A stretch of DNA of 46,219 nucleotides from Escherichia phage Rtp, in the sequence record NC_007603.1; one strand, 5' to 3'. The position numbers and the translations under genes are program-made. How positions within the stretch are numbered: position 1 is the stretch's first letter; every line of letters starts with the position of its first letter. This document shows, in pieces, positions 1 to 46,219 of this stretch. Under the pieces are notes generated by a model. It did no database searches and was not told the DNA's origin. It saw only the letters and a list, made by a program, of their open reading frames with translations.

Positions 1-214
1 AGCAATATTGCTTCAGATGCAATGATGTTTTTGATTGTTGCGGGTTGAGCAATGAAGTGATGAGTGAGTGAATGAAAGATTGATGGACTATCATACAAGT
101 TGATTTTGATCCTAGCTGAGCCATTTTAAGCATACGCGTTATAAAGGTTATGCCGTGTAGATTAGTCCTTCCGCGGAAATTCATACACGCCGTACCACGC
201 CAAGTTACGCCATA

Positions 215-296
215 GTTACACTATAATATCTATATATAACAACCATTTAGTGTAATTATTATTATTATATATATTACTATGTATATCATGTATATC
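215..296. repeat. about 80-bp AT-rich repeat, copy A
   Basis: TTACACTATAATATCTATATATAACAACC...TTATTATTATTATATATATTACTATGTATATCATGTA aligns at roughly 85 percent with 28088-28170. Confidence 0.7.
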
Positions 297-476
297 CCCC
301 TTGCGGGGAGGGTCGATAGTTTTTCTATGAAAATGACAATTTCTATATATATAAGGATAGGCATATACCCTCCGCGTTTTCCGCGGAAATCCATCTACAG
401 GCAAATTACATGAGCTATAGCTGGGCTTGGGCGCCCAAGAGCGTAGACATTGCCAAATATAAACACGAGATAACAC

Positions 477-504
477 TTGATAACGCGTATGTATGTGGTA
501 ATAT
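477..504 (+). promoter_or_regulatory. sigma70-like promoter (TTGATA-16bp-TAATAT, TGn extended -10)
   Basis: TTGATA at 477-482, 16-bp spacer, TAATAT at 499-504 preceded by TGG; lies upstream of the first ATG with an SD. Confidence 0.45.
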
Positions 505-2933: not shown

Positions 2934-3080
2934 ATGATTTACATTCACACTTACTACACAGGTAAGTTTAATAGCGTTAAGCACGTTCGGCTACATGAGA
3001 AGAAGATCGATGCGATTAAGCAACATGAAGTTCTTGGAGGTGTAGTTATTGAGGCAATGAAAACCCAAAACATCAAATAG
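2934..3080 (+). CDS. small ORF (48 aa)
   Basis: ATG 2934 with GAAGG SD; TAG stop at 3078 is shared with the palindrome; below the ORF-track length cutoff. Confidence 0.4.
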   Translation: MIYIHTYYTGKFNSVKHVRLHEKKIDAIKQHEVLGGVVIEAMKTQNIK

Positions 3081-3120
3081 CACGAATTGCTAAAACAGTA
3101 CCGGGGTAATTTGTTATAGT
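3078..3120 (+). promoter_or_regulatory. palindrome-promoter cassette
   Basis: TAGCACGAATTGCTAAAA at 3078; 22-bp spacer; TATAGT 3115-3120 followed by TACCCCATCGACAAC leader. Confidence 0.5.
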
Positions 3121-3887: not shown

Positions 3888-4030
3888 TGAGCTTCACTGA
3901 ATATGCAATAGCATGCGAAAGGCTGGTCTTTGATATGAAGACCTTCCACTGGTTCATCATTAAAGATTTAATTAAGCCTTATAAGCAAGGCGTCACGCCT
4001 GAACAGTTTGTTAAGTCATTCTACAAATAG
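3887..4030 (+). CDS. small ORF (47 aa)
   Basis: Translationally coupled start; TAG stop shared with the palindrome at 4028. Confidence 0.4.
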   Translation: MSFTEYAIACERLVFDMKTFHWFIIKDLIKPYKQGVTPEQFVKSFYK

Positions 4031-4070
4031 CACTAATTGCTAAACGCAGTCGCCAAGGATGGCATATAAT
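4028..4070 (+). promoter_or_regulatory. palindrome-promoter cassette
   Basis: TAGCACTAATTGCTAAA; 22-bp spacer with inverted repeat GCCAAGGATGGC; TATAAT 4065-4070. Confidence 0.5.
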
Positions 4071-4892: not shown

Positions 4893-4969
4893 GCCCCGCT
4901 AGCTCAATTGGATAGAGCAACGACCTTCTAAGTCGTAGGTTACTGGTTCGAATCCAGTGCGGAGCGCCA
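4893..4969 (+). tRNA. tRNA-Arg (anticodon UCU)
   Basis: Hand-folded cloverleaf: acceptor GCCCCGC/GCGGAGC (one C-A mismatch), D-arm GCTC-AATTGGATA-GAGC, anticodon arm ACGAC-CTTCTAA-GTCGT, T-arm ACTGG-TTCGAAT-CCAGT, encoded CCA. Confidence 0.7.
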
Positions 4970-6387: not shown

Positions 6388-6864
6388 ATGAATTGGCATG
6401 ATATTTTTGATTATGATGGATGTAATTTATACAGAAGGGATTCTGGAAAAAAGGCTGGAACAAAAGCGGGCCCTAGAGGTTACATTCAGTGCAGAGTTGG
6501 TGGTGGACTACCTAAGGTTTATGCTCACAGGATTATATGGGAGATGCACAATGACAAGATACCTAACAGCATGGTTGTTGACCACATTAACCACATATAC
6601 GACGACAATAGAATTGAAAACCTAAGGTTAGTAACAGTTAAGGAAAATTCTAGCAACATTAAGAGATCAAAGAGAAATACAAGTGGCATACAAGGAGTTA
6701 GGAGAAGGAGTGATAACGGAAATTGGTACGCGGACTTAAGAGTTGATGGAAAGCTAAGGCAAATGCCAATGCGACATTGCTTTGAAGACGCAGCAGCCGA
6801 TAGGATATATCTTGAAGTGTACCACGGGTTTCATCCAAATCATGGAGCAATAGTAAATGAGTGA
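6388..6864 (+). CDS. HNH endonuclease with AP2 domain (homing endonuclease-like)
   Basis: HRIIWEMHNDKIPNSMVVDHINHIYDDNRIENLRLV motif; paralog of 21464..21979; sits between terS and terL. Confidence 0.8.
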   Translation: MNWHDIFDYDGCNLYRRDSGKKAGTKAGPRGYIQCRVGGGLPKVYAHRIIWEMHNDKIPNSMVVDHINHIYDDNRIENLRLVTVKENSSNIKRSKRNTSGIQGVRRRSDNGNWYADLRVDGKLRQMPMRHCFEDAAADRIYLEVYHGFHPNHGAIVNE

Positions 6865-8428
6865 CCTAATCGTATGGGATGAGCTGACTCACGCTGAGAA
6901 GATGGCTATAAAGGCCATCTCTGAGCATAGTTTCGAGGGATTCTTGCGTTGTTTCTTCCAGATAACTCAGGGTGAGAGATTTAAAATGAATTGGCATGCG
7001 AAATACCTTTGCCGCGTCATAGATGAGATTCTTGAGGGTAAGAGAAAGGACACCATCATAAACGTAGCTCCTGGGTCAGCCAAAACCGAACTGTTTAGCA
7101 TCCATTTCCCTGTTTATAGCATGATTAAGATTAAGAAGGTTAGGAATCTTAGCTTGTCGTTCTCTGACTCACTTGTTAAGCGCAACTCCAAGCGCGTCCG
7201 CGACCTGATTAAGTCAAAAGAGTTTCAGGAACTTTGGCCATGCTCCTTTGGAACATGCAGGGATGACGAGATTCAGGTTCTGGATGAGAATGGTAAAGTT
7301 AGATTTGAGTCTATATCTAAGGCAATGGCGGGACAGGTGACGGGAAGCAGGGGTGGCTACATGACCGATGATTACAGTGGTTGCATAATGCTGGATGACC
7401 CGCTAAAACCTGATGATGCGCTGAGTAATGTAAGGAGGGAGGCTGTCAACATGCTTCTCAAGAACACAATTCGCTCGCGTCGCGCTAGCTCGGTAAAAGG
7501 GAAGGAAACGCCAATAATTGCTGTGCAGCAAAGACTTCATGTTCTGGATACTAGCCACTTCATGGAGTCAGGACAAATGGGCATCAAGTTCGATGTGGTG
7601 AAAGTTCCTGCCATAGTCACGGAGGATTACGCCGACACGCTTCCTGATTGGATCAAACAACAATTTATTGATGATGTTCTTTCATCACCATTTGTAGAGC
7701 GGGATGGGGTTAAGTATTACAGCTATTTTCCAGCAAAGGAATCAATAGAAGACTTAATGGCCATGCGAGACGCTGACCCTTACACATTCCTTAGTCAGTA
7801 CGCTCAAGAACCCGTAGCGCTTGGTGGCAATCTTATTAACGTGGATTGGTTCCAGCGCCTTAGTGATACATTCAGACCTCCAGCTAAGTACGATTATAGA
7901 TTCATAACTTGCGACACGGCGATGACTACAAAGAGTTATAGCGACTTCTCTGTACTCCAGTTGTGGGGCTATAAGGACGCTAAGATTTACCTGATAGACC
8001 AGCGCAGGGGTAAGTGGGAAGCTCCGGAGTTGGAAGCTGAACTGCTGGATTTCGAGAAGAAATCAAGGTCAACCAGTCAGTCAGATGGCATCCTTAGAAA
8101 GATTATTATCGAGAAGAAAGCATCCGGCATCGGACTCATTCAGTCGGCAGGAAGGGTAATGCGAACACCCATAGAGCCATACGTACCTGATAACGACAAG
8201 CTAACCAGGGTAATGAGCGCACTGCCGCAGATTAAGGCTGGCAATGTAGTTCTTCCAGAATCAGCGCCGTGGTTAAGCGGATTGCTTACTGAGATTGCAG
8301 CTTTTACGGCAGATGACTCGCATAAGCACGATGACCAAATTGACTGTCTAACAATGGCAATCAACCTGGTACTTAACATTGCCGATGATCCTAAGGCTCG
8401 ACTAATGCGCATAGCTGGAATGAAATAG
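6857..8428 (+). CDS. terminase large subunit
   Basis: 523 aa; N-terminal ATPase region and C-terminal nuclease-like region (ITCDTAMTT...DFSVLQLWG), typical terminase architecture. Confidence 0.85.
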   Translation: MSDLIVWDELTHAEKMAIKAISEHSFEGFLRCFFQITQGERFKMNWHAKYLCRVIDEILEGKRKDTIINVAPGSAKTELFSIHFPVYSMIKIKKVRNLSLSFSDSLVKRNSKRVRDLIKSKEFQELWPCSFGTCRDDEIQVLDENGKVRFESISKAMAGQVTGSRGGYMTDDYSGCIMLDDPLKPDDALSNVRREAVNMLLKNTIRSRRASSVKGKETPIIAVQQRLHVLDTSHFMESGQMGIKFDVVKVPAIVTEDYADTLPDWIKQQFIDDVLSSPFVERDGVKYYSYFPAKESIEDLMAMRDADPYTFLSQYAQEPVALGGNLINVDWFQRLSDTFRPPAKYDYRFITCDTAMTTKSYSDFSVLQLWGYKDAKIYLIDQRRGKWEAPELEAELLDFEKKSRSTSQSDGILRKIIIEKKASGIGLIQSAGRVMRTPIEPYVPDNDKLTRVMSALPQIKAGNVVLPESAPWLSGLLTEIAAFTADDSHKHDDQIDCLTMAINLVLNIADDPKARLMRIAGMK

Positions 8429-8468
8429 CACAAATTGCTAAACAATGAGGCCACGGATGGCGTATATT
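8426..8468 (+). promoter_or_regulatory. palindrome-promoter cassette
   Basis: TAGCACAAATTGCTAAA shares TAG with the terL stop; 22-bp spacer; TATATT 8463-8468. Confidence 0.5.
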
Positions 8469-16297: not shown

Positions 16298-16303
16298 ATT
16301 GCA

Positions 16304-16346
16304 TAGCACTTTTTGCTAAAGCGCTTATTAAAATTTGCTGTATATT
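16304..16346 (+). promoter_or_regulatory. palindrome-promoter cassette inside the tail module
   Basis: TAGCACTTTTTGCTAAA; 22-bp spacer; TATATT 16341-16346; leader TACCTTATCGAAACGAAA. Confidence 0.5.
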
Positions 16347-21463: not shown

Positions 21464-21979
21464 ATGAATTGGCATGATTACTTTAGATATGAAGACGGCA
21501 AGTTATACTGGATTAGCTTTCCAAACCCAGAGCAGACAAGGAGCGTAAAGATAGGAGATGTTGCTGGATACAAACACCCTGACAACAAGGGTTACATTAG
21601 GGTTCAAGTTATGGGTAAGATGCTAAGGGTCCATCGCGTGATATGGGAAATGCATAACGGAAAAATACCAGAAGGCATGGAGATTGACCACATAAATGGG
21701 ATTAGATCAGACAACAGAATTGAAAACCTAAGAATTGTTAATGGTCTTGAGAACATGAAAAATAAGGGGATTTATAAAAACAACAAAACTGGATTTGTTG
21801 GGGTTGAGAAAATTAAAGCAAACGGAAAGTACAGGGCAAGCATAAGAGTTAATAAAAAACTTATTTTTCTAGGTGAGTATATTTCAATTGAAGATGCCAT
21901 TGACGCTAGAAAGAAAGCTGAATGTGAATACCTTTTCCATAAGAATCACGGAGTTAGAAATGCTTACACCAAAAGTTAA
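21464..21979 (+). CDS. HNH endonuclease with AP2 domain (homing endonuclease-like), paralog of 6388..6864
   Basis: HRVIWEMHNGKIPEGMEIDHINGIRSDNRIENLRIV motif; inserted between L-like and K-like tail genes. Confidence 0.8.
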   Translation: MNWHDYFRYEDGKLYWISFPNPEQTRSVKIGDVAGYKHPDNKGYIRVQVMGKMLRVHRVIWEMHNGKIPEGMEIDHINGIRSDNRIENLRIVNGLENMKNKGIYKNNKTGFVGVEKIKANGKYRASIRVNKKLIFLGEYISIEDAIDARKKAECEYLFHKNHGVRNAYTKS

Positions 21980-27687: not shown

Positions 27688-28000
<313 letters not shown>

Positions 28001-28087
28001 TCGTATACACGTAACCGATGTAACTCGATGTATACAATCTCATCCGCGGAAAATGATATACGCGCTGTTACGCTAATTTACGCATTG

Positions 28088-28170
28088 GTTACATTAAAAT
28101 ATCTATATATATCAACCTTTTACTCTTATTATTATTATTATATATATTACTGTGTATATCATGTAACTAC
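28088..28170. repeat. about 80-bp AT-rich repeat, copy B
   Basis: TTACATTAAAATATCTATATATATCAACC...TTATTATTATTATATATATTACTGTGTATATCATGTA; pairs with 215-296. Confidence 0.7.
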
Positions 28171-28310
28171 TTCTATAGAGTGTTCCGCTTATAATTTTAA
28201 TGTCATGTTGATTTACACAGTATATAATAGCCAGCATAGCAATGCACCCTCCACTAGAAATGATATACACGATATACACGCTGGTTACATTGAGCTATAG
28301 CTTGGATGAG

Positions 28311-28658
28311 ATGCCAAAAAACGTAACAAGCGCCAATGCCTACACGAAATTACAAGTATTCACGCGTAAGTTTGAATCAACGATTGGCGAAACCAATTGG
28401 ACTGGATACGGTGCTGAATATATAGTTACCTCATCGAAAGCAAACAACCAGAGAGATACAGAAATGGCCTACTACATTATCAAAGAGAAAAACAATGCAC
28501 TGTTCGGCGACTGCTATTTCGGCGGCCCTGCTGGATACACCACAGATAAGAGTGAAGCCGACAGATTCGATACCAAAGAAGAAGCCCGGGATGTACTGAC
28601 TGGTTACTTCACTGAAGAAGATTTGAAGTCTGTTAAAGTAGTTAAGGTTAAGGAATAG
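28311..28658 (+). CDS. hypothetical protein (about 115 aa)
   Basis: ORF track 28242..28658 trimmed to ATG 28311 (the upstream part overlaps the repeat/promoter region). Confidence 0.45.
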   Translation: MPKNVTSANAYTKLQVFTRKFESTIGETNWTGYGAEYIVTSSKANNQRDTEMAYYIIKEKNNALFGDCYFGGPAGYTTDKSEADRFDTKEEARDVLTGYFTEEDLKSVKVVKVKE

Positions 28659-30394: not shown

Positions 30395-30826
<432 letters not shown>

Positions 30827-33803: not shown

Positions 33804-33828
33804 TAAAAAAACCTCCCGAGGGAGGTTA
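33804..33828 (-). terminator. rho-independent terminator (minus strand)
   Basis: Minus-strand CCTCCC-TCG-GGGAGG plus T7, overlapping the primase stop. Confidence 0.6.
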
Positions 33829-34749
33829 GTTTAGCAAGTCTTTGGCTTTGTACACTTTCTTGCGTATTCCTGTTTTGAATGACTTCCCGTCATTAGGTAT
33901 CACCACATCAACATTGCGATCATCAGCGGCAATAAGTATATCAGTATCACAATCGCGGCAAGCAACCCTAAACTTCCTTGACCTGTCGCGGTGGATGACC
34001 ATTTCCACGTTGTAAGAGGAGAAAGCAACAAACACTTCGCGACCACCTGTAGCCAAGTGAACACGTACACCATCAATAAAATTATCGACAATATAAGTAT
34101 AGCTACCATCCTGCTTAGAACCAATAACGGAAACAGAATCACGTGTGTAATCACCAGCAAGGAATTTAACATTTGAATCTCCATCAATAAACATTAAGTT
34201 GCAGAACTCATCACCAAGACCATCCTCGTAAACCATTGAGCAGGGTACGGCATGAATCATTGAGCCATCCTTAGCTATGCCAACATCGAATCCATCATCA
34301 AGATAAATACCTTCATATGTTGTGAGTGGGCTTGATTCAACTCTTACAGTCCGATCCATGACTTCAAGAACTTTTTCATGATCTACCTGTGCGCCCATTT
34401 TGTAACGCTGAGTCCTTGATGCTTGCTTATTTGCCTTATTAACCACCTCTACAGGGATAAGGTTTAACCACTCACCGAGAACATCTATACATTCACTGAA
34501 TGACTCCCCCCTCATCTTTTGTAACCACAGAATTCCATCGCCTGAGCCACACTGGTTGCAGATAATGCCACCATCACCTTCTTTGCTAACCTTGTTAGTC
34601 CATCGTGCTCGGTCGTTTCCTCCACAATAAATACATGGCTGATGCTTTTTGGTCTGGAAGAATTTTGGGTCTGCGCCGCAGATATTGATAAGTGCCTTAT
34701 CCCACAGGCCGCGCATTCTTGGTAAAACCTCTTTCTTATCGTAGTGCAT
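33826..34749 (-). CDS. putative DNA primase (zinc-ribbon type)
   Basis: N-terminal CIYCGG-x-DR...C-x-QCG-x-GDG zinc-binding motif resembling P4-type primase zinc ribbons. Confidence 0.5.
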   Translation of the reverse strand: MHYDKKEVLPRMRGLWDKALINICGADPKFFQTKKHQPCIYCGGNDRARWTNKVSKEGDGGIICNQCGSGDGILWLQKMRGESFSECIDVLGEWLNLIPVEVVNKANKQASRTQRYKMGAQVDHEKVLEVMDRTVRVESSPLTTYEGIYLDDGFDVGIAKDGSMIHAVPCSMVYEDGLGDEFCNLMFIDGDSNVKFLAGDYTRDSVSVIGSKQDGSYTYIVDNFIDGVRVHLATGGREVFVAFSSYNVEMVIHRDRSRKFRVACRDCDTDILIAADDRNVDVVIPNDGKSFKTGIRKKVYKAKDLLN

Positions 34750-34807: not shown

Positions 34808-35281
34808 TTACTCTTTAGCTTTTCGTGCTGCCTCATTAGCGGCCTTGATCTTTCTCCATGAACGACACTCTGGTTTGGTTGCTAACTCGGACTCAGTAAC
34901 CACACGCAGCATGTGACGCTTCTTGCACCGTAATGTCAGCGGCTTTCCGTTGCCGTCGAATTGCAGGTCTGGTCGGCAGAATGTAGCGCGAAAACCTTCT
35001 CCATTTCGCTTGTAGTAGTTGTGAGAAAGCTGAGCGCCGCGAGCAGATATCATTCCACGCTTAAACCATTCCTCTACAGCCTGTGGTGTTACCTTTAACT
35101 GCTTTGCGATATTCGCCTTTGTGCCGAAGAAATCAAGAACAATCTCCAGTCGCGCGCGCAACCCTGCCCTTACTTCATCTTTCAAAACGTAGTAACCTGA
35201 AGGTCGTTTTCGTTGTTTTTTGTCTTCAGTGCGGACAGTTCCGTTATTACCGTTGATTGTTCTCTTGTCGACTGTATTCAT
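34808..35281 (-). CDS. putative HTH DNA-binding protein
   Basis: IAKQLKVTPQAVEEWFKRG resembles a Cro/C1-type helix-turn-helix; basic N-terminus. Confidence 0.5.
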   Translation of the reverse strand: MNTVDKRTINGNNGTVRTEDKKQRKRPSGYYVLKDEVRAGLRARLEIVLDFFGTKANIAKQLKVTPQAVEEWFKRGMISARGAQLSHNYYKRNGEGFRATFCRPDLQFDGNGKPLTLRCKKRHMLRVVTESELATKPECRSWRKIKAANEAARKAKE

Positions 35282-35382: not shown

Positions 35383-37377
35383 ATGTTGCCTATCGAGAAG
35401 CTGGTTGCTAACTTTGATAAAGAAAGAATCAAACAGATTCAGAAGGATTACCAGTTTGGGGAGATAACCCCATACGAGTTCCAGTGCGTAACATTTGATG
35501 CTATCGGAAAGGCTATTGGGAAGTATGAGGCCCCATTTATAGCAGACCTTTCAGTTTCTGCTGGTAAGACAATCATTCTTGCCATGATTGGTAAGCGCAT
35601 GGAGCAATTGGGATTGCCTTATATGGTTCTTTCTCGCCAGTCAGAGATAATCAGCCAGAACTCAGAGGAGCTTCGTAATTTCGGCATCCGTAATAGCGTC
35701 TATTGCGCTGGCCTTAATGTTAAATCAGTTTACTACCCAACCATAGTTGCCAGTGAGGGCACGGCGGCTAATGGCTTGTTTAAGGGGCTTGGTGACTATG
35801 TTCCGGCAGTTATCGCTATAGATGAGTGTCATCATATGGACCATATGGATATTGTTGAAGCAGAGGAGAACGAAGAAACATTTGAACAAATGAGCACAAA
35901 GAAAGGCGAAATGGTTTTTAAGGATGGCGTAAACACGGGATTGCTTGGCACTGGTCGTGCGCAGTACACGCTAATCATTACTGAAATGAAACGTCGTTGT
36001 CGTGAGAGGTATGGTCGTGAGCTTCGTATATTCGGTCTAACTGGCAGCCCATATCGTAACAATGATCATATCGTCGTTAGCAACCCAAACATCCGTGGCT
36101 TCTGGCGCAAAACAGTTATTCAGGTCCCAACCAATTACCTGGTTGATTTAGGATTCGTGGTACCAACAGTTTACGGCGAGGTTGGTGATTTGGGTTATGA
36201 CCTTGCGGAGTTTGCGCCAGACGGAAGTGATGGTGTGAAAGACTTTGGCAAGAAAGAAATGGACGCCATGCAGGAAAAGATTCATCAAAACCAGTCCATG
36301 ACGCAAAAGATTATGCAATTTGCTGCAAAGTTCATGGAGACTCGCAACGCTGCGCTTGTGACATGTGCCGGTAAACGTCATTGTGAGGAAGCAGCAGCAG
36401 CGCTTCCTGAGGGTGTAACCTGGGCTATAGTAACTGACTCTACTGGTGAGAAAAAGCGTAGGGAGATTCTTTCTGACGCAGTTGAAGGTAAGTATAAATT
36501 CATATTTCAGATCGGTTGTCTCACAACTGGCGTGAACGTCCCGCCATGGGATACATCAATCATTCTGCGCAAAGTTGGTAGTATCACGCTTCTTATTCAG
36601 CTTTTGGGGCGAGGCATGCGAATACTTAAGAAGAAACATAAGGAAATGGGGATGGTCAAGGATGATCACGTGGTGCTAGACTTTGCTGGCACTCTTGATG
36701 ACATGGCAGAATTATACTTTGATCCAATCATAGAGGAGGTGCAGGATCAGAAATTCAAGTCCTCTCGTAAAGTTGGGGATAAGTCAAGAGTATGTCAGGC
36801 CTGTGGCTATAAAAACCCCCCACTTGCTCGTCGTTGCAATAACGTAATTGACGGTAAACGATGTGAGCATTTTTTTACATTTCGCTTGTGTGAAGATATA
36901 GAGGACCCGCAGACAAAATCTATTATTAAGAAAGGTTGTGGTGAGAAGAATGATATTGCCGCTAAAAACTGTCGGTGCTGCGGAGAGATGCTAATAGACC
37001 CGAATGCAAAGTTATCTGGGAAAATGTATCGTAAAGGCGACTGGTTGCGAGTCTACGACTTTAAGATTGGATTAACAAAGAATCAATCAGGGATTGTTGC
37101 CTCATACGAGGTCATGGCTCATAGTGGTGATAGGTTCCGGGCCTATGAGACGTTTTTTCCAGAGTCAGACCATCGCGTTTGCTCTGTAAGATGGAAATCA
37201 TTTTGCTCGACTCACATAGAGAGCAGGACTGAGGCTTTTAGAATTGGCAGGTTGCGTAATGCTAAGATGATTATGACTAATGCTCACCTTTTCCGTGCGC
37301 CATTAAGGATTACACACCGTAAGAACCAGAAAGGCCAGGATATTATCGCCAATAAATCTTTTACTATGGAGGATTGA
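35383..37377 (+). CDS. SF2 (DExH-type) helicase with C-terminal zinc-ribbon cysteines
   Basis: Walker A SAGKT, DECHH motif, multiple CxxC pairs near the C-terminus. Confidence 0.75.
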   Translation: MLPIEKLVANFDKERIKQIQKDYQFGEITPYEFQCVTFDAIGKAIGKYEAPFIADLSVSAGKTIILAMIGKRMEQLGLPYMVLSRQSEIISQNSEELRNFGIRNSVYCAGLNVKSVYYPTIVASEGTAANGLFKGLGDYVPAVIAIDECHHMDHMDIVEAEENEETFEQMSTKKGEMVFKDGVNTGLLGTGRAQYTLIITEMKRRCRERYGRELRIFGLTGSPYRNNDHIVVSNPNIRGFWRKTVIQVPTNYLVDLGFVVPTVYGEVGDLGYDLAEFAPDGSDGVKDFGKKEMDAMQEKIHQNQSMTQKIMQFAAKFMETRNAALVTCAGKRHCEEAAAALPEGVTWAIVTDSTGEKKRREILSDAVEGKYKFIFQIGCLTTGVNVPPWDTSIILRKVGSITLLIQLLGRGMRILKKKHKEMGMVKDDHVVLDFAGTLDDMAELYFDPIIEEVQDQKFKSSRKVGDKSRVCQACGYKNPPLARRCNNVIDGKRCEHFFTFRLCEDIEDPQTKSIIKKGCGEKNDIAAKNCRCCGEMLIDPNAKLSGKMYRKGDWLRVYDFKIGLTKNQSGIVASYEVMAHSGDRFRAYETFFPESDHRVCSVRWKSFCSTHIESRTEAFRIGRLRNAKMIMTNAHLFRAPLRITHRKNQKGQDIIANKSFTMED

Positions 37378-37378
37378 T

Positions 37379-37798
37379 ATGAATATTACAGACAAAGTTG
37401 ATTACATTGAGTTTTACCCTGGCCCGGTTAAGTCATGCCCTAAAGAGGATGATGAACAAATCTTTTGCTCTGATTGGGTTAAGTATAACTACCCAGAGAT
37501 GGTATTTTTCCACTGCGTGAATGAGGGTAAGAAAACCATTGGTCAAGCAAGAAAAGATCAGGCTAAGGGTCTCCTTAAGGGAGTGTCAGACTGTATGTTT
37601 CTTATACCTGAATCTATCCGAGGCAAATACCCTTTCGGAGCTATAGAGCTAAAGAGAGCAGGAAAAACGCAGGCAAGCCCAGTCAGTGAGGAGCAGAAGG
37701 CTTTCCTTAAAAGCGTAATGGAATCAGGTGGTTTTTCCGCAGTTGCCTACGGCAGGGAAGGGTTCCTTGCAGCATTCAAAGAAATGATTTCAAAATAG
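37379..37798 (+). CDS. VRR-NUC-like nuclease
   Basis: 139 aa; SD...IELK pattern resembling a PD-(D/E)XK / VRR-NUC core; immediately follows the helicase. Confidence 0.45.
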   Translation: MNITDKVDYIEFYPGPVKSCPKEDDEQIFCSDWVKYNYPEMVFFHCVNEGKKTIGQARKDQAKGLLKGVSDCMFLIPESIRGKYPFGAIELKRAGKTQASPVSEEQKAFLKSVMESGGFSAVAYGREGFLAAFKEMISK

Positions 37799-37838
37799 CA
37801 CTAATTGCTAAAGGCGATTTTAAAAGATGGGGTATAGT
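37796..37838 (+). promoter_or_regulatory. palindrome-promoter cassette
   Basis: TAGCACTAATTGCTAAAG shares TAG with the upstream stop; 22-bp spacer; GGGGTATAGTTACCCC. Confidence 0.5.
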
Positions 37839-42192: not shown

Positions 42193-43776
42193 TCACCCCA
42201 ATAGTCGTGGATTAACGTAAACTTTATCACCAATCAGGCACGTATAGTTTTTCTCATCAAGCATTGGCAGTAAGCGATCTTTAATCTTTGTCATTACACC
42301 AGCTTGAGCCTCAAACGGCTTAACCTTTCGAGCTGCCTCATACAATGAACGAATACCAACTACACCTTTCCCGTTCTTGCCTTGCTTGATCAGTATATCA
42401 ACCAGCTTGCTCATCTCAGCATGGTCGCCAGCGTGACCAGCAGCGTTAGCTGATGACAGATACGTCTTGCTCAGCTCCTGGAACATAATCACAGCTTCTT
42501 GCATGGTATCAAGTTCAATCTCTCTGGATTTCTGTGGACTACCGCCATTTGGGTTGAACCAGTTGCGCACAGTGTGAAGAACAGCTGCAATCCTGATGGC
42601 CTGCTTATCGAACTTACCCAACGCGCCACGTAACATTGTGTGTGAATACTTCCCGCCATCTGCAAGGTGAGGCTCCATCTCCTGACGCGCACGGTTGAGG
42701 TATTTCATCGCTGAGTTGCTCACTGTCAGCTTAACATCTTGCTCATTCATTATTTCATGAACTAAACGGAAGTAATCTGCCTTCAGCTCGCCATTAATTG
42801 GTTCGTATGTTGAGTTGCCATTCTCATCAACGAATACGCGCTCACCAAGGAATGATTTTTCACGAACCAAAAGGAAACGTTCAGATACACCGATACCACG
42901 CGCACCAGCATTCATGATGGCGTTGATTGTTTCATCCTGCGCAATTACAGAGATGCAACCCATAGCAACGAAACTCATGTTATTTTCTGCGTTGGCACGC
43001 GCGATAGATACGTTACCGGCATCCCATGCCTTAAGCACAAGTTCGCTGTTCGTTTTCTTAGAGCCATCACCATAGGTCATGCCAAGAAGTGAATTGACGC
43101 TAGTTGCTTCATCCGAGATTACAGCGAAGTTACCCTGTCGGTTGTTTATTCGCGCAAGACCTTCCGGAGTGGTATCTGACACTGGAAATACGATATCGCA
43201 CATCTTTTCCAGCTTTTCCTCTAAATCCTCTTTTTCCTCAAACAGCGCCGCCATCTCTGATGGTGACTTCTCCTGCTTCATCTCTTTTGATAATACAGAT
43301 AGTTTTGCCATGATCTTCTTGCGCTCACGCTTTCTCAATTCATTCAGTCGCTCAGTCTCAGCAATCATTGGAGCAATTGAAAGTGAGTTGATGGCTGATT
43401 TACCTGTCGATGGTGGTTGGCTTGTCACGACATAAAGCGAAGTTGGCTGCTGAGTTCCATGATACTCAACAGTAAAACGGCCCAGCATGGCAGCGGAAAT
43501 ACACCCCAGAAAGTGCATATAAGCTGAAGACTCAGGGAACTGAACAGAACGGGCAATATTGGCTGAAAGCTTACCAACAACATCAATGTCATTACCGAGT
43601 GAGATTACGGGATACTTGTCATTAGCCGCATCAATCTCGACTGGTGCTTTCCAGAATGATTGAGACTGACGATAGCCATTAGCATTAATAGCGACGCGCA
43701 GGGGTGGGAGGTTGTCTGCGGCAGCAATTGCCATAACCTGTTCAACAGATAGTTTATCTTCGTTGAAATCAAACAT
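42193..43776 (-). CDS. P-loop NTPase (putative replication / primase-associated ATPase)
   Basis: 527 aa; Walker A-like PPSTGKS; cassette promoter variant upstream; function not resolved. Confidence 0.55.
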   Translation of the reverse strand: MFDFNEDKLSVEQVMAIAAADNLPPLRVAINANGYRQSQSFWKAPVEIDAANDKYPVISLGNDIDVVGKLSANIARSVQFPESSAYMHFLGCISAAMLGRFTVEYHGTQQPTSLYVVTSQPPSTGKSAINSLSIAPMIAETERLNELRKRERKKIMAKLSVLSKEMKQEKSPSEMAALFEEKEDLEEKLEKMCDIVFPVSDTTPEGLARINNRQGNFAVISDEATSVNSLLGMTYGDGSKKTNSELVLKAWDAGNVSIARANAENNMSFVAMGCISVIAQDETINAIMNAGARGIGVSERFLLVREKSFLGERVFVDENGNSTYEPINGELKADYFRLVHEIMNEQDVKLTVSNSAMKYLNRARQEMEPHLADGGKYSHTMLRGALGKFDKQAIRIAAVLHTVRNWFNPNGGSPQKSREIELDTMQEAVIMFQELSKTYLSSANAAGHAGDHAEMSKLVDILIKQGKNGKGVVGIRSLYEAARKVKPFEAQAGVMTKIKDRLLPMLDEKNYTCLIGDKVYVNPRLLG

Positions 43777-44922: not shown

Positions 44923-44966
44923 ATAATACCGCATCCTTGCGATTCTGTTTTAGCAATTCGTGCTAT
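44923..44966 (-). promoter_or_regulatory. palindrome-promoter cassette (minus strand)
   Basis: Minus-strand TAGCACGAATTGCTAAA; 22-bp spacer; TATTAT; leader TTTCCATCGAAACGAAACAACG. Confidence 0.5.
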
Positions 44967-45749: not shown

Positions 45750-45875
45750 TCCCTCATCTCGTTTAACTTAGTGTTTTTAGAGGTTCGCTTTGATGCCATC
45801 GCTGCTTGAGTGGTTATCCTGTTCCTTCAGGAGGCCGTTCGGCTCTTTACTTCCCACCCCGTTCTCTATGTACTA

Positions 45876-45918
45876 ACTATACTTCTTTTCTTCACTGCCG
45901 TTTTAACAAAAAGTGCTA
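45876..45918 (-). promoter_or_regulatory. palindrome-promoter cassette (minus strand)
   Basis: Minus-strand TAGCACTTTTTGTTAAAA; 22-bp spacer; TATAGT. Confidence 0.45.
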
Positions 45919-46117
45919 TTTACTAACTTTCTACTTCATTTACTTCTTTCGAGGAACCCGGTCAGACTTTGCTGCCGGAGAAGGTGTCTGGGAGTTTACC
46001 TATTCGGAAGTGACTCAACGTGCCCTTTCTCAACACTTGCCGGCATTTTTCATCCGGACGATTCGACCTCTGGGAGGCAGCTACTTGGCGTTCGCTTCAC
46101 TGCTTCCTTGAGATACA

Positions 46118-46159
46118 TATTACCAGTTTCTCGATTTATGTCTTTAGCAAAAAGTGCTA
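46118..46159 (-). promoter_or_regulatory. palindrome-promoter cassette (minus strand), second tandem copy
   Basis: Minus-strand TAGCACTTTTTGCTAA, about 20-bp spacer, TAATAT. Confidence 0.4.
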
Positions 46160-46219
46160 TTCGTTGGATTTATGGATTGTTGAAGATATTGCAATGATTC
46201 ACATGATTATTGCACGTAT

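Follow-up and report, generated by a model that had tools for sequence, protein, structure and literature searches.

Where replication starts in the T1-like coliphages, and what role is played by two long non-coding repeats in the genome of one of them, are questions raised by a short AT-rich segment of Escherichia phage Rtp (NC_007603.1). The window considered here is the complete genome of this T1-like phage (Drexlerviridae, Braunvirinae), 46,219 bp in length, which is collinear in gene order with T1, CEB_EC3a, SU57 and G8. The segment, at 28088-28170, has a counterpart at 215-296, and the two form the cores of a pair of homologous elements, termed A (132..495, + strand) and B (28005..28374, + strand). 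The papers on SU57 and TLS state that these phages have no known origin. A literature search that did not extend to the genome papers of T1 and Rtp turned up neither transcriptome data nor mapped origins for phages of the T1 type.

We tentatively favor the reading that A and B are paired origin-like elements, in each of which a candidate DNA unwinding element (DUE) is flanked by two arrays of short iterons; the pair may form a two-origin system that overlaps early promoters. The initial annotation of this locus had offered two candidates, replication origins with iterons or paired early promoter/operator regions. Each draws partial support from the observations discussed in the following sections, neither is proven, and both are kept in view.

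Extent and Identity of the Repeat Pair

Comparison of the genome with itself by BLAST returns 132-495 against 28005-28374 as the top self-match, with 65% identity over 371 columns and an E value of 1.5e-33, well above anything that chance would give. A recurrence of about 80 bp at roughly 85% identity had been reported in the initial annotation. The recurrence itself is borne out, the AT-rich cores at 215-296 and 28088-28170 being 88% identical and the pair being the strongest internal match of the window, whereas the length has to be revised, since the homology spans ~370 bp. The extents of A and B are also backed by MAFFT alignments, and B occurs in 132 phage records at 79-92% identity.

Several sequence motifs are confined to the two elements or concentrated in them. 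CCGCGG occurs at 3 sites in 46 kb, each time as TCCGCGGA, and none of them lies outside A or B. GAGCTATAGCT is present in the whole genome at 412 and 28292 only, and ATTATTATTA is restricted to A and B in all five whole Braunvirinae genomes checked. TATATA is counted 12 times in A and B together versus 4 times in the remaining ~45 kb, and (TA)n runs are essentially limited to the two elements. The palindromes and short motifs listed in the initial annotation were all recovered, displaced by at most 1-2 bases.

Anatomy of the Elements

Both loci from ten Braunvirinae phages were aligned (20 sequences), and A and B share one order of parts from left to right. An ACRCGTWA block with GTAAC/GTTAT repeats, which is kept in 20/20 aligned sequences, marks the left edge and is followed by a TCCGCGGAA-type palindrome, four direct repeats of the form (A/T)TACRC, and a TATAAT/TAAAAT hexamer. 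Then comes the core, AATATCTATATATATCAACCTTTTACT(ATT)n(TA)nTTACTGTGTATATCATGTA, and after a variable stretch a second array, GATATACACGATATACACG..GGTTACATT, which is like the first. The palindrome GAGCTATAGCT and a group of CGTAAC, CTACACG, TTACA and ACGCGTA motifs complete the element.

The left array of A (183..221, + strand) comprises ATACAC at 183, CCACGC at ~196, TTACGC at 205 and TTACAC at 216, with TATAAT next at 222-227, and it aligns with the B array in 20/20 sequences. In the left array of B (28057..28094, + strand), ATACGC at 28057, TTACGC at 28068, TTACGC at 28078 and TTACAT at 28089 are spaced by 11, 10 and 11 bp, and TAAAAT follows at 28095-28100. Direct reading of the left edge of B further reveals an inverted repeat (28003..28035), in which GTATACA at 28003-28009 and TGTATAC at 28029-28035 enclose two GTAAC motifs (28011 and 28020). 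On the other side of the core, the right array of B (28262..28302, + strand) consists of two tandem copies of GATATACAC (28262-28279), GGTTACATT, and then the 10-bp palindrome AGCTATAGCT situated inside GAGCTATAGCT; it resembles the left array (GAAATGATATACRCG ... GGTTACATT). Sequence reading and alignment place the right array of A at 391..424 (+ strand), with CATCTACAGGCAAATTACAT followed by GAGCTATAGCTGG. The distal right motifs of B, namely CGTAAC, CTACACG, ATTACAA and TTCACGCGTAAG, were assigned by alignment to 28321..28370, and ATACACG is found at positions 183, 28005, 28265 and 28274. In 6/6 whole genomes tested, the elements show a 5-20 fold excess of the short motifs, on both sides of the core; TACRCG, for instance, is seen 10 times versus 0.5 expected (P 3e-11).

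The cores are the candidate unwinding elements. The core of A (215..296) has the form AATATCTATATATA..(ATT)n(TA)n..GTATATCATGTA, and that of B occupies 28088..28170. Calculation with nearest-neighbor energies identifies 216-296 (z 5.2) and 28089-28169 (z 5.0) as the least and second least stable 80-bp segments genome-wide, with the next at z 3.6.

The palindromes centered on CCGCGG had been given emphasis in the initial annotation. In A, the first of them is TTCCGCGGAA at 169..178, where other phages have TCCGTAGGA-type imperfect palindromes at the same position; TTCCGCGGAA recurs at 379, within the second palindrome, TTTCCGCGGAAA (378..389), which is kept in G8 and IME542 and is degenerate in others. 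The corresponding palindrome of B is TCCGCGGA at 28043..28050. Since CCGCGG is intact in 8/10 B copies and few A copies, this palindrome is variable among relatives and is probably not the essential feature of the elements.

Conservation Among Relatives

The expectation that both copies would be kept in related genomes holds, as A and B are present in 10/10 of the Braunvirinae phages aligned. The B copies share a mean identity of 0.855 and the A copies one of 0.599, and the identity between A and B is 0.545 within one phage and 0.549 between phages. The equality of the latter two values rules out gene conversion between A and B, and A and B are thus ancient paralogs, which split before these phages diverged, with selection retaining their shared blocks at both loci. 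The core is the best-conserved part, with identities of 0.98 for B-B, 0.79 for A-A and 0.80 for A-B comparisons (97.9% for the B core among the 10 phages), compared with 0.49-0.58 for A-B in the flanks. Variation in the core is confined to the number of ATT units, 4 to 9. We also note that the (ATT)n tract of the A copies, with its 4 to 9 units, is microsatellite-like (e.g., L006 1047-1071, L004 148-166 and L010 556-574 among the aligned loci), and that B is almost fixed at 5.

Beyond the Braunvirinae, Rogunavirinae keep the left array and the core only. T1 (Tunavirinae) and TLS (Tempevirinae) have no BLAST similarity to the Rtp elements; in each of them the same two loci nevertheless bear a homologous A/B pair, whose (TA)n-rich core lies between lineage-specific repeats. 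The repeats are ATTACGC, GATTAACAC and GTGTAACA in T1, and GTTCAC to the left and GTGAACA/GGAACA to the right of the core in TLS. In the Braunvirinae, T1 and TLS alike, the lineage's own A and B have repeats in common, and the pair as such is conserved across three Drexlerviridae subfamilies. Repeats that differ by lineage and yet match between A and B point to a single phage-encoded protein that would bind both sites. Comparison with 5,426 E. coli genomes and 72,556 plasmids turned up no similar element, and a host or plasmid origin of the elements was rejected on this basis.

Two readings of the conserved sequence as something other than a DNA site were considered. The minus-strand open reading frames (ORFs) at 230-394 and 28112-28279 were rejected as genes: they are alike only where the DNA is alike, and indels of 1-2 bases break the frame, so that they are artefacts of the shared DNA. 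The second possibility is that A and B act as RNA, either as a nut/put-like antitermination pair or as small RNAs transcribed into the downstream operons. The pair does head rightward operons rich in intrinsic terminators, and A and B are equally oriented. The nutL/nutR sites of lambda and the putL/putR sites of HK022 likewise head operons, and as paired homologous cis elements at the head of early operons they offer a parallel. However, nut and put function as structured RNA, whereas analysis of the 20 copies with RNAalifold gave -1.4 kcal/mol, 0 compensatory pairs, and no conserved RNA structure or covariation in A or B. An Rfam scan of the whole window at gathering thresholds returned tRNA only, without a match at the elements. 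Downstream of the core, small hairpins occur (CCCC/GGGG in A and TCTATAGA in B); they lack conservation across phages and between groups and were set aside. No convincing promoter feeds the core. A role as RNA is accordingly the least credible of the explanations considered here, and we regard it as highly improbable.

Early Transcription and the Direct-Repeat Box

The location of the elements, as described in the initial annotation, agrees with the gene map. B is situated between the leftward cor and receptor-binding protein genes and a rightward group formed by a small ORF and then recE-erf-ssb, and A lies upstream of the first rightward gene (DUF7174 by Pfam). On the circular map, A is likewise divergent and intergenic, with the leftward early cluster, including the gene for the DUF3987 helicase, on its opposite side. 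The two elements thus head early operons in both directions, and this arrangement is what an alternative explanation builds on. According to it, A and B are early transcription control regions, and the repeats are operator or activator sites for a phage regulator, such as a Cro-like helix-turn-helix (HTH) protein, or for a host factor. The bound factor would switch the four early units diverging from A and B, and the core would serve as promoter, UP-element or bendable DNA. We regard this explanation as the main rival and as somewhat less likely than the origin-type reading; it accounts for a number of observations.

One of these is a sigma70-type promoter at the right edge of A (477..504, + strand), TTGATA-16-TAATAT with TG, which was predicted in a position weight matrix (PWM) scan and would drive the DUF7174 gene at 546. 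In the scan, which covered the 20 copies, it outscores the other promoter-like sites in 10/10 A copies, with scores of 10-13. The promoter overlaps the last repeats, as TAACAC at 471 and TAACGC at 481 flank or overlap its -35; on account of this overlap, the sites of the elements may, in addition, modulate early transcription. The right edge of A is, however, the only place where a -35/-10 pair with 16-18 bp spacing is conserved, and B has no promoter at the equivalent position. A promoter-like site to the right of B, TTGGAC-18-TATAGT (28397..28426, + strand), was recognized by sequence reading and alignment. It is located in a 38-bp segment absent from A and precedes the small ORF at 28464 and recE.

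The TATAAT/TAAAAT hexamer after the left array is found in 19/20 copies, as well as in T1 and TLS, and related records annotate predicted promoters in the elements. The layout of the elements, in which 7-bp direct repeats separated by 4-bp spacers lie just upstream of a -10, resembles activator sites of the PhoB/OmpR type. Nevertheless, the hexamer lacks an acceptable -35 and was rejected as a standard promoter. A second site, TTTACT-18-TATATT inside the core, occurs in 9/10 B copies. Its score is moderate, about 9, which is at the chance level for AT-rich DNA, and its spacing would shift with (ATT)n; promoter-like sites within the core are weaker than the one at the edge of A and may reflect AT-richness. 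Distance also argues against transcriptional control, since the greater part of the ~370 bp is located 100-350 bp upstream of the operon promoters and most repeats lie more than 100 bp upstream.

A further argument comes from a different repeat, the direct-repeat (DR) box. One leftward copy of it, ATAGCACGAATAGATAAA (27984..28001, - strand), is situated upstream of cor and abuts the left edge of B, and the same layout is found at the T1 A locus, which suits an early control region. The DR box accompanies most transcription units, and the element repeats are unlike it; they are therefore not the general promoter signal of the phage. The general signal of these units is already provided by the 20 copies of the DR box, so that there is no obvious need for a second control element of 370 bp. 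In addition, the intergenic region between the regulator and the helicase genes is devoid of element-type repeats and has a DR box only, and autoregulation via the element repeats in that region was rejected for this reason.

As for the DR box itself, the sequence ATAGCACnnnTTGnTAAA is present in 20 copies in the genome versus 0.5 expected, for example at 2359-2376, 3077-3094, 4027-4044, 8425-8442, 16303-16320 and 37795-37812, and on the minus strand at 44949-44966 and 46143-46160. It contains the inverted repeat TAGCA-N5-TGCTA and is identical to a 21-nt repeat described in TLS; the TLS paper covers this DR and not the elements discussed here. A conserved TATAGTTACC(C/T)CATCGAAAC box is usually located ~22 nt downstream. 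The gap from TTGCTA to TATAGT is 22 nt, which is over-long for an ordinary sigma70 promoter.

Candidate Trans-acting Proteins

Two phage proteins are candidates for the trans-acting factor. The first is the DUF3987 protein of 527 aa (42193..43776, - strand), assigned by Pfam and predicted from an AlphaFold2 model to be a minichromosome maintenance (MCM)-like AAA+ helicase whose C terminus (residues 451-527) is a winged helix. The model, calculated from a 41-sequence alignment, has a predicted local distance difference test (pLDDT) score of 89.4 and a predicted template modeling (pTM) score of 0.87. When it was compared with the PDB, the best 50 matches were all MCM helicases, with a probability of about 1 and a low TM-score of about 0.34. 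The modeled topology of residues 451-527, H-b-H-H-b-b, is that of a winged helix. In comparison with T1, the winged helix is 45%, the N-terminus 41% and the AAA+ core 61% identical, and within the Braunvirinae each domain retains 88-100% identity. The greater divergence of the winged helix and N-terminus fits, without proving, a function of these parts as the specificity domain.

The second candidate is a Cro-like HTH protein of 157 aa (34808..35281, - strand), which has a weak P22_Cro match in Pfam and is labelled as a transcriptional regulator in annotations of relatives. Its gene is directly upstream of that of the primase (33826..34749, - strand), which contains a P4-type zinc ribbon (PF08273, E 2e-9). 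At the sequence level, neither the helicase nor the HTH protein had a useful match in the PDB. The Pfam scan of the phage proteins also identified an SF2 helicase and a VRR-NUC nuclease, and revealed no DnaB-type helicase or loader.

A Possible Mechanism of Initiation

Under the origin-type reading, the arrays of 6-8 bp repeats (TTACGC / ATACACG / GTTACAT / GTAAC) flanking the core would be the sites for one phage DNA-binding protein. In the first step, this initiator would occupy the repeats to the left and right of the core. The MCM-like DUF3987 helicase is the best candidate and might make contact via its C-terminal winged helix; the alternative is the Cro-like HTH protein. The core would then melt as the DUE, and the helicase would be loaded. 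Finally, synthesis would be begun by the phage primase and the host polymerase. One copy of the element could fire theta replication, while the other, with initiator bound, may stall forks and lead by way of the adjacent RecE/Erf/SSB genes to concatemer synthesis. In its most specific form, that is, a two-site system run by an MCM-like self-loading helicase, with a theta start at one element and a fork stall/recombination switch at the other, the proposal is quite improbable, in our estimation.

Comparison with Known Systems

A close architectural parallel is found in the pathogenicity islands (SaPIs) of Staphylococcus aureus. The SaPI Rep protein is a self-loading superfamily (SF) 3 or MCM-like SF6 initiator-helicase, which reads iterons of 5-6 bp through a C-terminal winged helix (PMC9371898). 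In the SaPI ori, an AT-rich region in the middle has penta- or hexanucleotide iterons, 6-12 of them, to its left and right (PMC9371898). Rtp similarly has short repeats around an AT core of ~80 bp and a helicase that is predicted to be MCM-like with a C-terminal winged helix. In contrast to the Rtp pair, which is present in two copies kilobases from the helicase gene, the SaPI ori is single and lies immediately downstream of rep. SaPI iterons are opposed across the core, whereas the orientation in Rtp is mixed; in TLS, GTTCAC stands left and GTGAACA right of the core. Furthermore, the core sequence itself is strongly conserved in Rtp, and the likeness between DUF3987 and Rep is one of architecture.

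A precedent for two sites is offered by SPP1, a pac-type siphovirus, in which the distant oriL and oriR carry similar direct repeats together with a DUE that is AT-rich and are both bound by gp38 (PMC6316719). The oriR of SPP1 is thought to stall forks and thus lead to recombination-dependent concatemers via an exonuclease, a single-strand annealing protein (SSAP), an SSB and a Holliday junction (HJ) resolvase (PMC6316719). Rtp likewise has two distant regions, each with repeats and an AT-rich core, and it possesses genes for VRR-NUC and, directly to the right of B, for RecE, Erf and SSB. The differences are that oriL is inside gene 38 whereas A and B are intergenic, and that SPP1 employs gp38, the loader gp39 and the DnaB-type gp40, which have no sequence or protein homology to Rtp with its DUF3987 protein, SF2 helicase and P4-type primase.

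In satellite phage P4, the alpha primase-helicase uses its C-terminal winged helix to bind two separate cis regions, ori and crr, which have one iteron in common. The P4-type zinc ribbon of the T1-like primase is a point of likeness, and the TGTTCAC/GTGAACA repeats of TLS resemble the P4 type I iteron, TGTTCACC. However, the repeats of the Rtp elements are TTACGC, ATACACG and GTTACAT rather than TGTTCACC, and TGTTCAC-like repeats are confined to TLS. The P4 helicase belongs to SF3 and is joined to the primase, whereas in Rtp the two are separate proteins and the helicase models as MCM-like; P4 crr is not known to have an AT core comparable to those of A and B. The oriF and oriG origins of T4 and the primary origin of T7 represent yet another type, in which a promoter is followed by an AT-rich unwinding element and priming occurs from an R-loop. 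The Rtp elements are similar to these in having a -10-like hexamer directly upstream of an AT-rich segment, with activator-type repeats replacing the -35, and in being present in several copies per genome. The parallel is limited in that no MotA-like activator was identified and no RNA features are conserved, and the hexamer is only a putative promoter.

Several considerations weigh against an origin function. Protein binding, melting, initiation and a division of labor between A and B are all inferred, and the TM-scores of the MCM matches are low. The sites are distant from the genes of their presumed partners, with 2.4 kb between A and the DUF3987 gene, across the record junction, and with B about 14 kb from that gene and about 5.5 kb from the primase gene. 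A and B coincide precisely with the points of divergence of early transcription units, and the overlap of A with a conserved sigma70 promoter suits a regulatory role equally well. The conservation of the core sequence exceeds what a simple unwinding element requires. As the repeats are short and degenerate, the enrichment statistics shift with the choice of pattern, and in Rtp repeats of both orientations are found on both sides of the core, TLS being cleaner in this respect. Finally, GC skew along the genome tracks gene direction and gives no independent origin signal.

Packaging Region and Mosaic Junctions

The proximity of A to the packaging region raises yet another possibility, namely that A and B are packaging or recombination sites: an accessory pac, a site of terminase/integration host factor (IHF) assembly, or a place of RecE/Erf exchange that forms module boundaries. 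In phage Msk, the packaging terminus was mapped to position 36,862, forward (PhageTerm; PMC8421802). This corresponds to about position 91 of the window, and A starts ~40 bp to the right of it. A pac-proximal stretch, which runs from 46165-46219 across the record junction to 1..131 and bears GCAATGA and TGATTG repeats, shows 85-94% conservation across 21 phage records, and the homology among these records stops at 107-139. With the Msk terminus at ~91 and the conserved stretch ending at 107-139, A adjoins the pac region and is separate from it. The pac-proximal 1-131 is lacking in B, and the single terminus reported for Msk is left of A, both of which argue against packaging sites.

Breaks in homology at the left edges of both elements (~107-139 and 28005/28006), together with the differing cargo genes to the left of B, would agree with exchange at these places. 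Nevertheless, mosaic junctions are expected at any conserved non-coding block, and the identity between A and B is not raised within a phage, which indicates that A and B do not recombine with each other. The core of B does contain a match to the IHF consensus, TATCAACCTTTTA at 28110-28122. Such matches are insignificant (4 found versus 3.1 expected), and the site was rejected. Taken as a whole, a packaging or recombination role is very unlikely.

The left edge of B at 28005/28006 is a mosaic junction in relatives. Between cor and B, these hold a gene for a Roi/anti-repressor-like DNA-binding protein, a DNA methylase gene or a small ORF (L001 4782-5435, L002 25604-26251, L007, L009 and L013). 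On the other side of the record junction from A, a segment of ~390 bp (45750-46135) upstream of the first leftward gene is unconserved in the relatives checked. It bears a pair of leftward DR boxes and lacks minus-strand ORFs of at least 50 aa; a long leader or a small gene so far missed in annotation may be located here.

Other Features of the Genome

A few observations concern other parts of the window. The ORFs at 6388-6864 and 21464-21979 are paralogous, with 60% nucleotide identity over 221 bp. They match HNH endonuclease annotations of relatives by position, and one of them is just upstream of the large terminase gene. A tRNA-Arg (anticodon tct) is encoded at 4893-4969, as in related T1-like phages. 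The CAG/CAA (polyglutamine-coding) repeats at 30725-30802 form the 3' end of the ssb-like ORF 30395-30826.

Significance

T1 belongs to the seven classical T phages, and phages related to it are often met in collections for phage therapy and as contaminants of fermentations. With two precise candidate sites that are conserved family-wide and two candidate binding proteins, the missing origin of a classical phage family becomes directly testable. If A and B are origins, they would provide a Gram-negative example of dual phage origins and would tie the MCM-like DUF3987 helicases to a defined DNA target. They could also supply parts for phage engineering, such as origin-dependent plasmid amplification and replication-defective mutants. 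Should the two-site proposal hold, a classical coliphage would follow an SPP1-like logic built from unrelated parts of archaeal/eukaryotic type. Should A and B turn out to be transcriptional switches, the family's early regulatory circuit would be defined by them.

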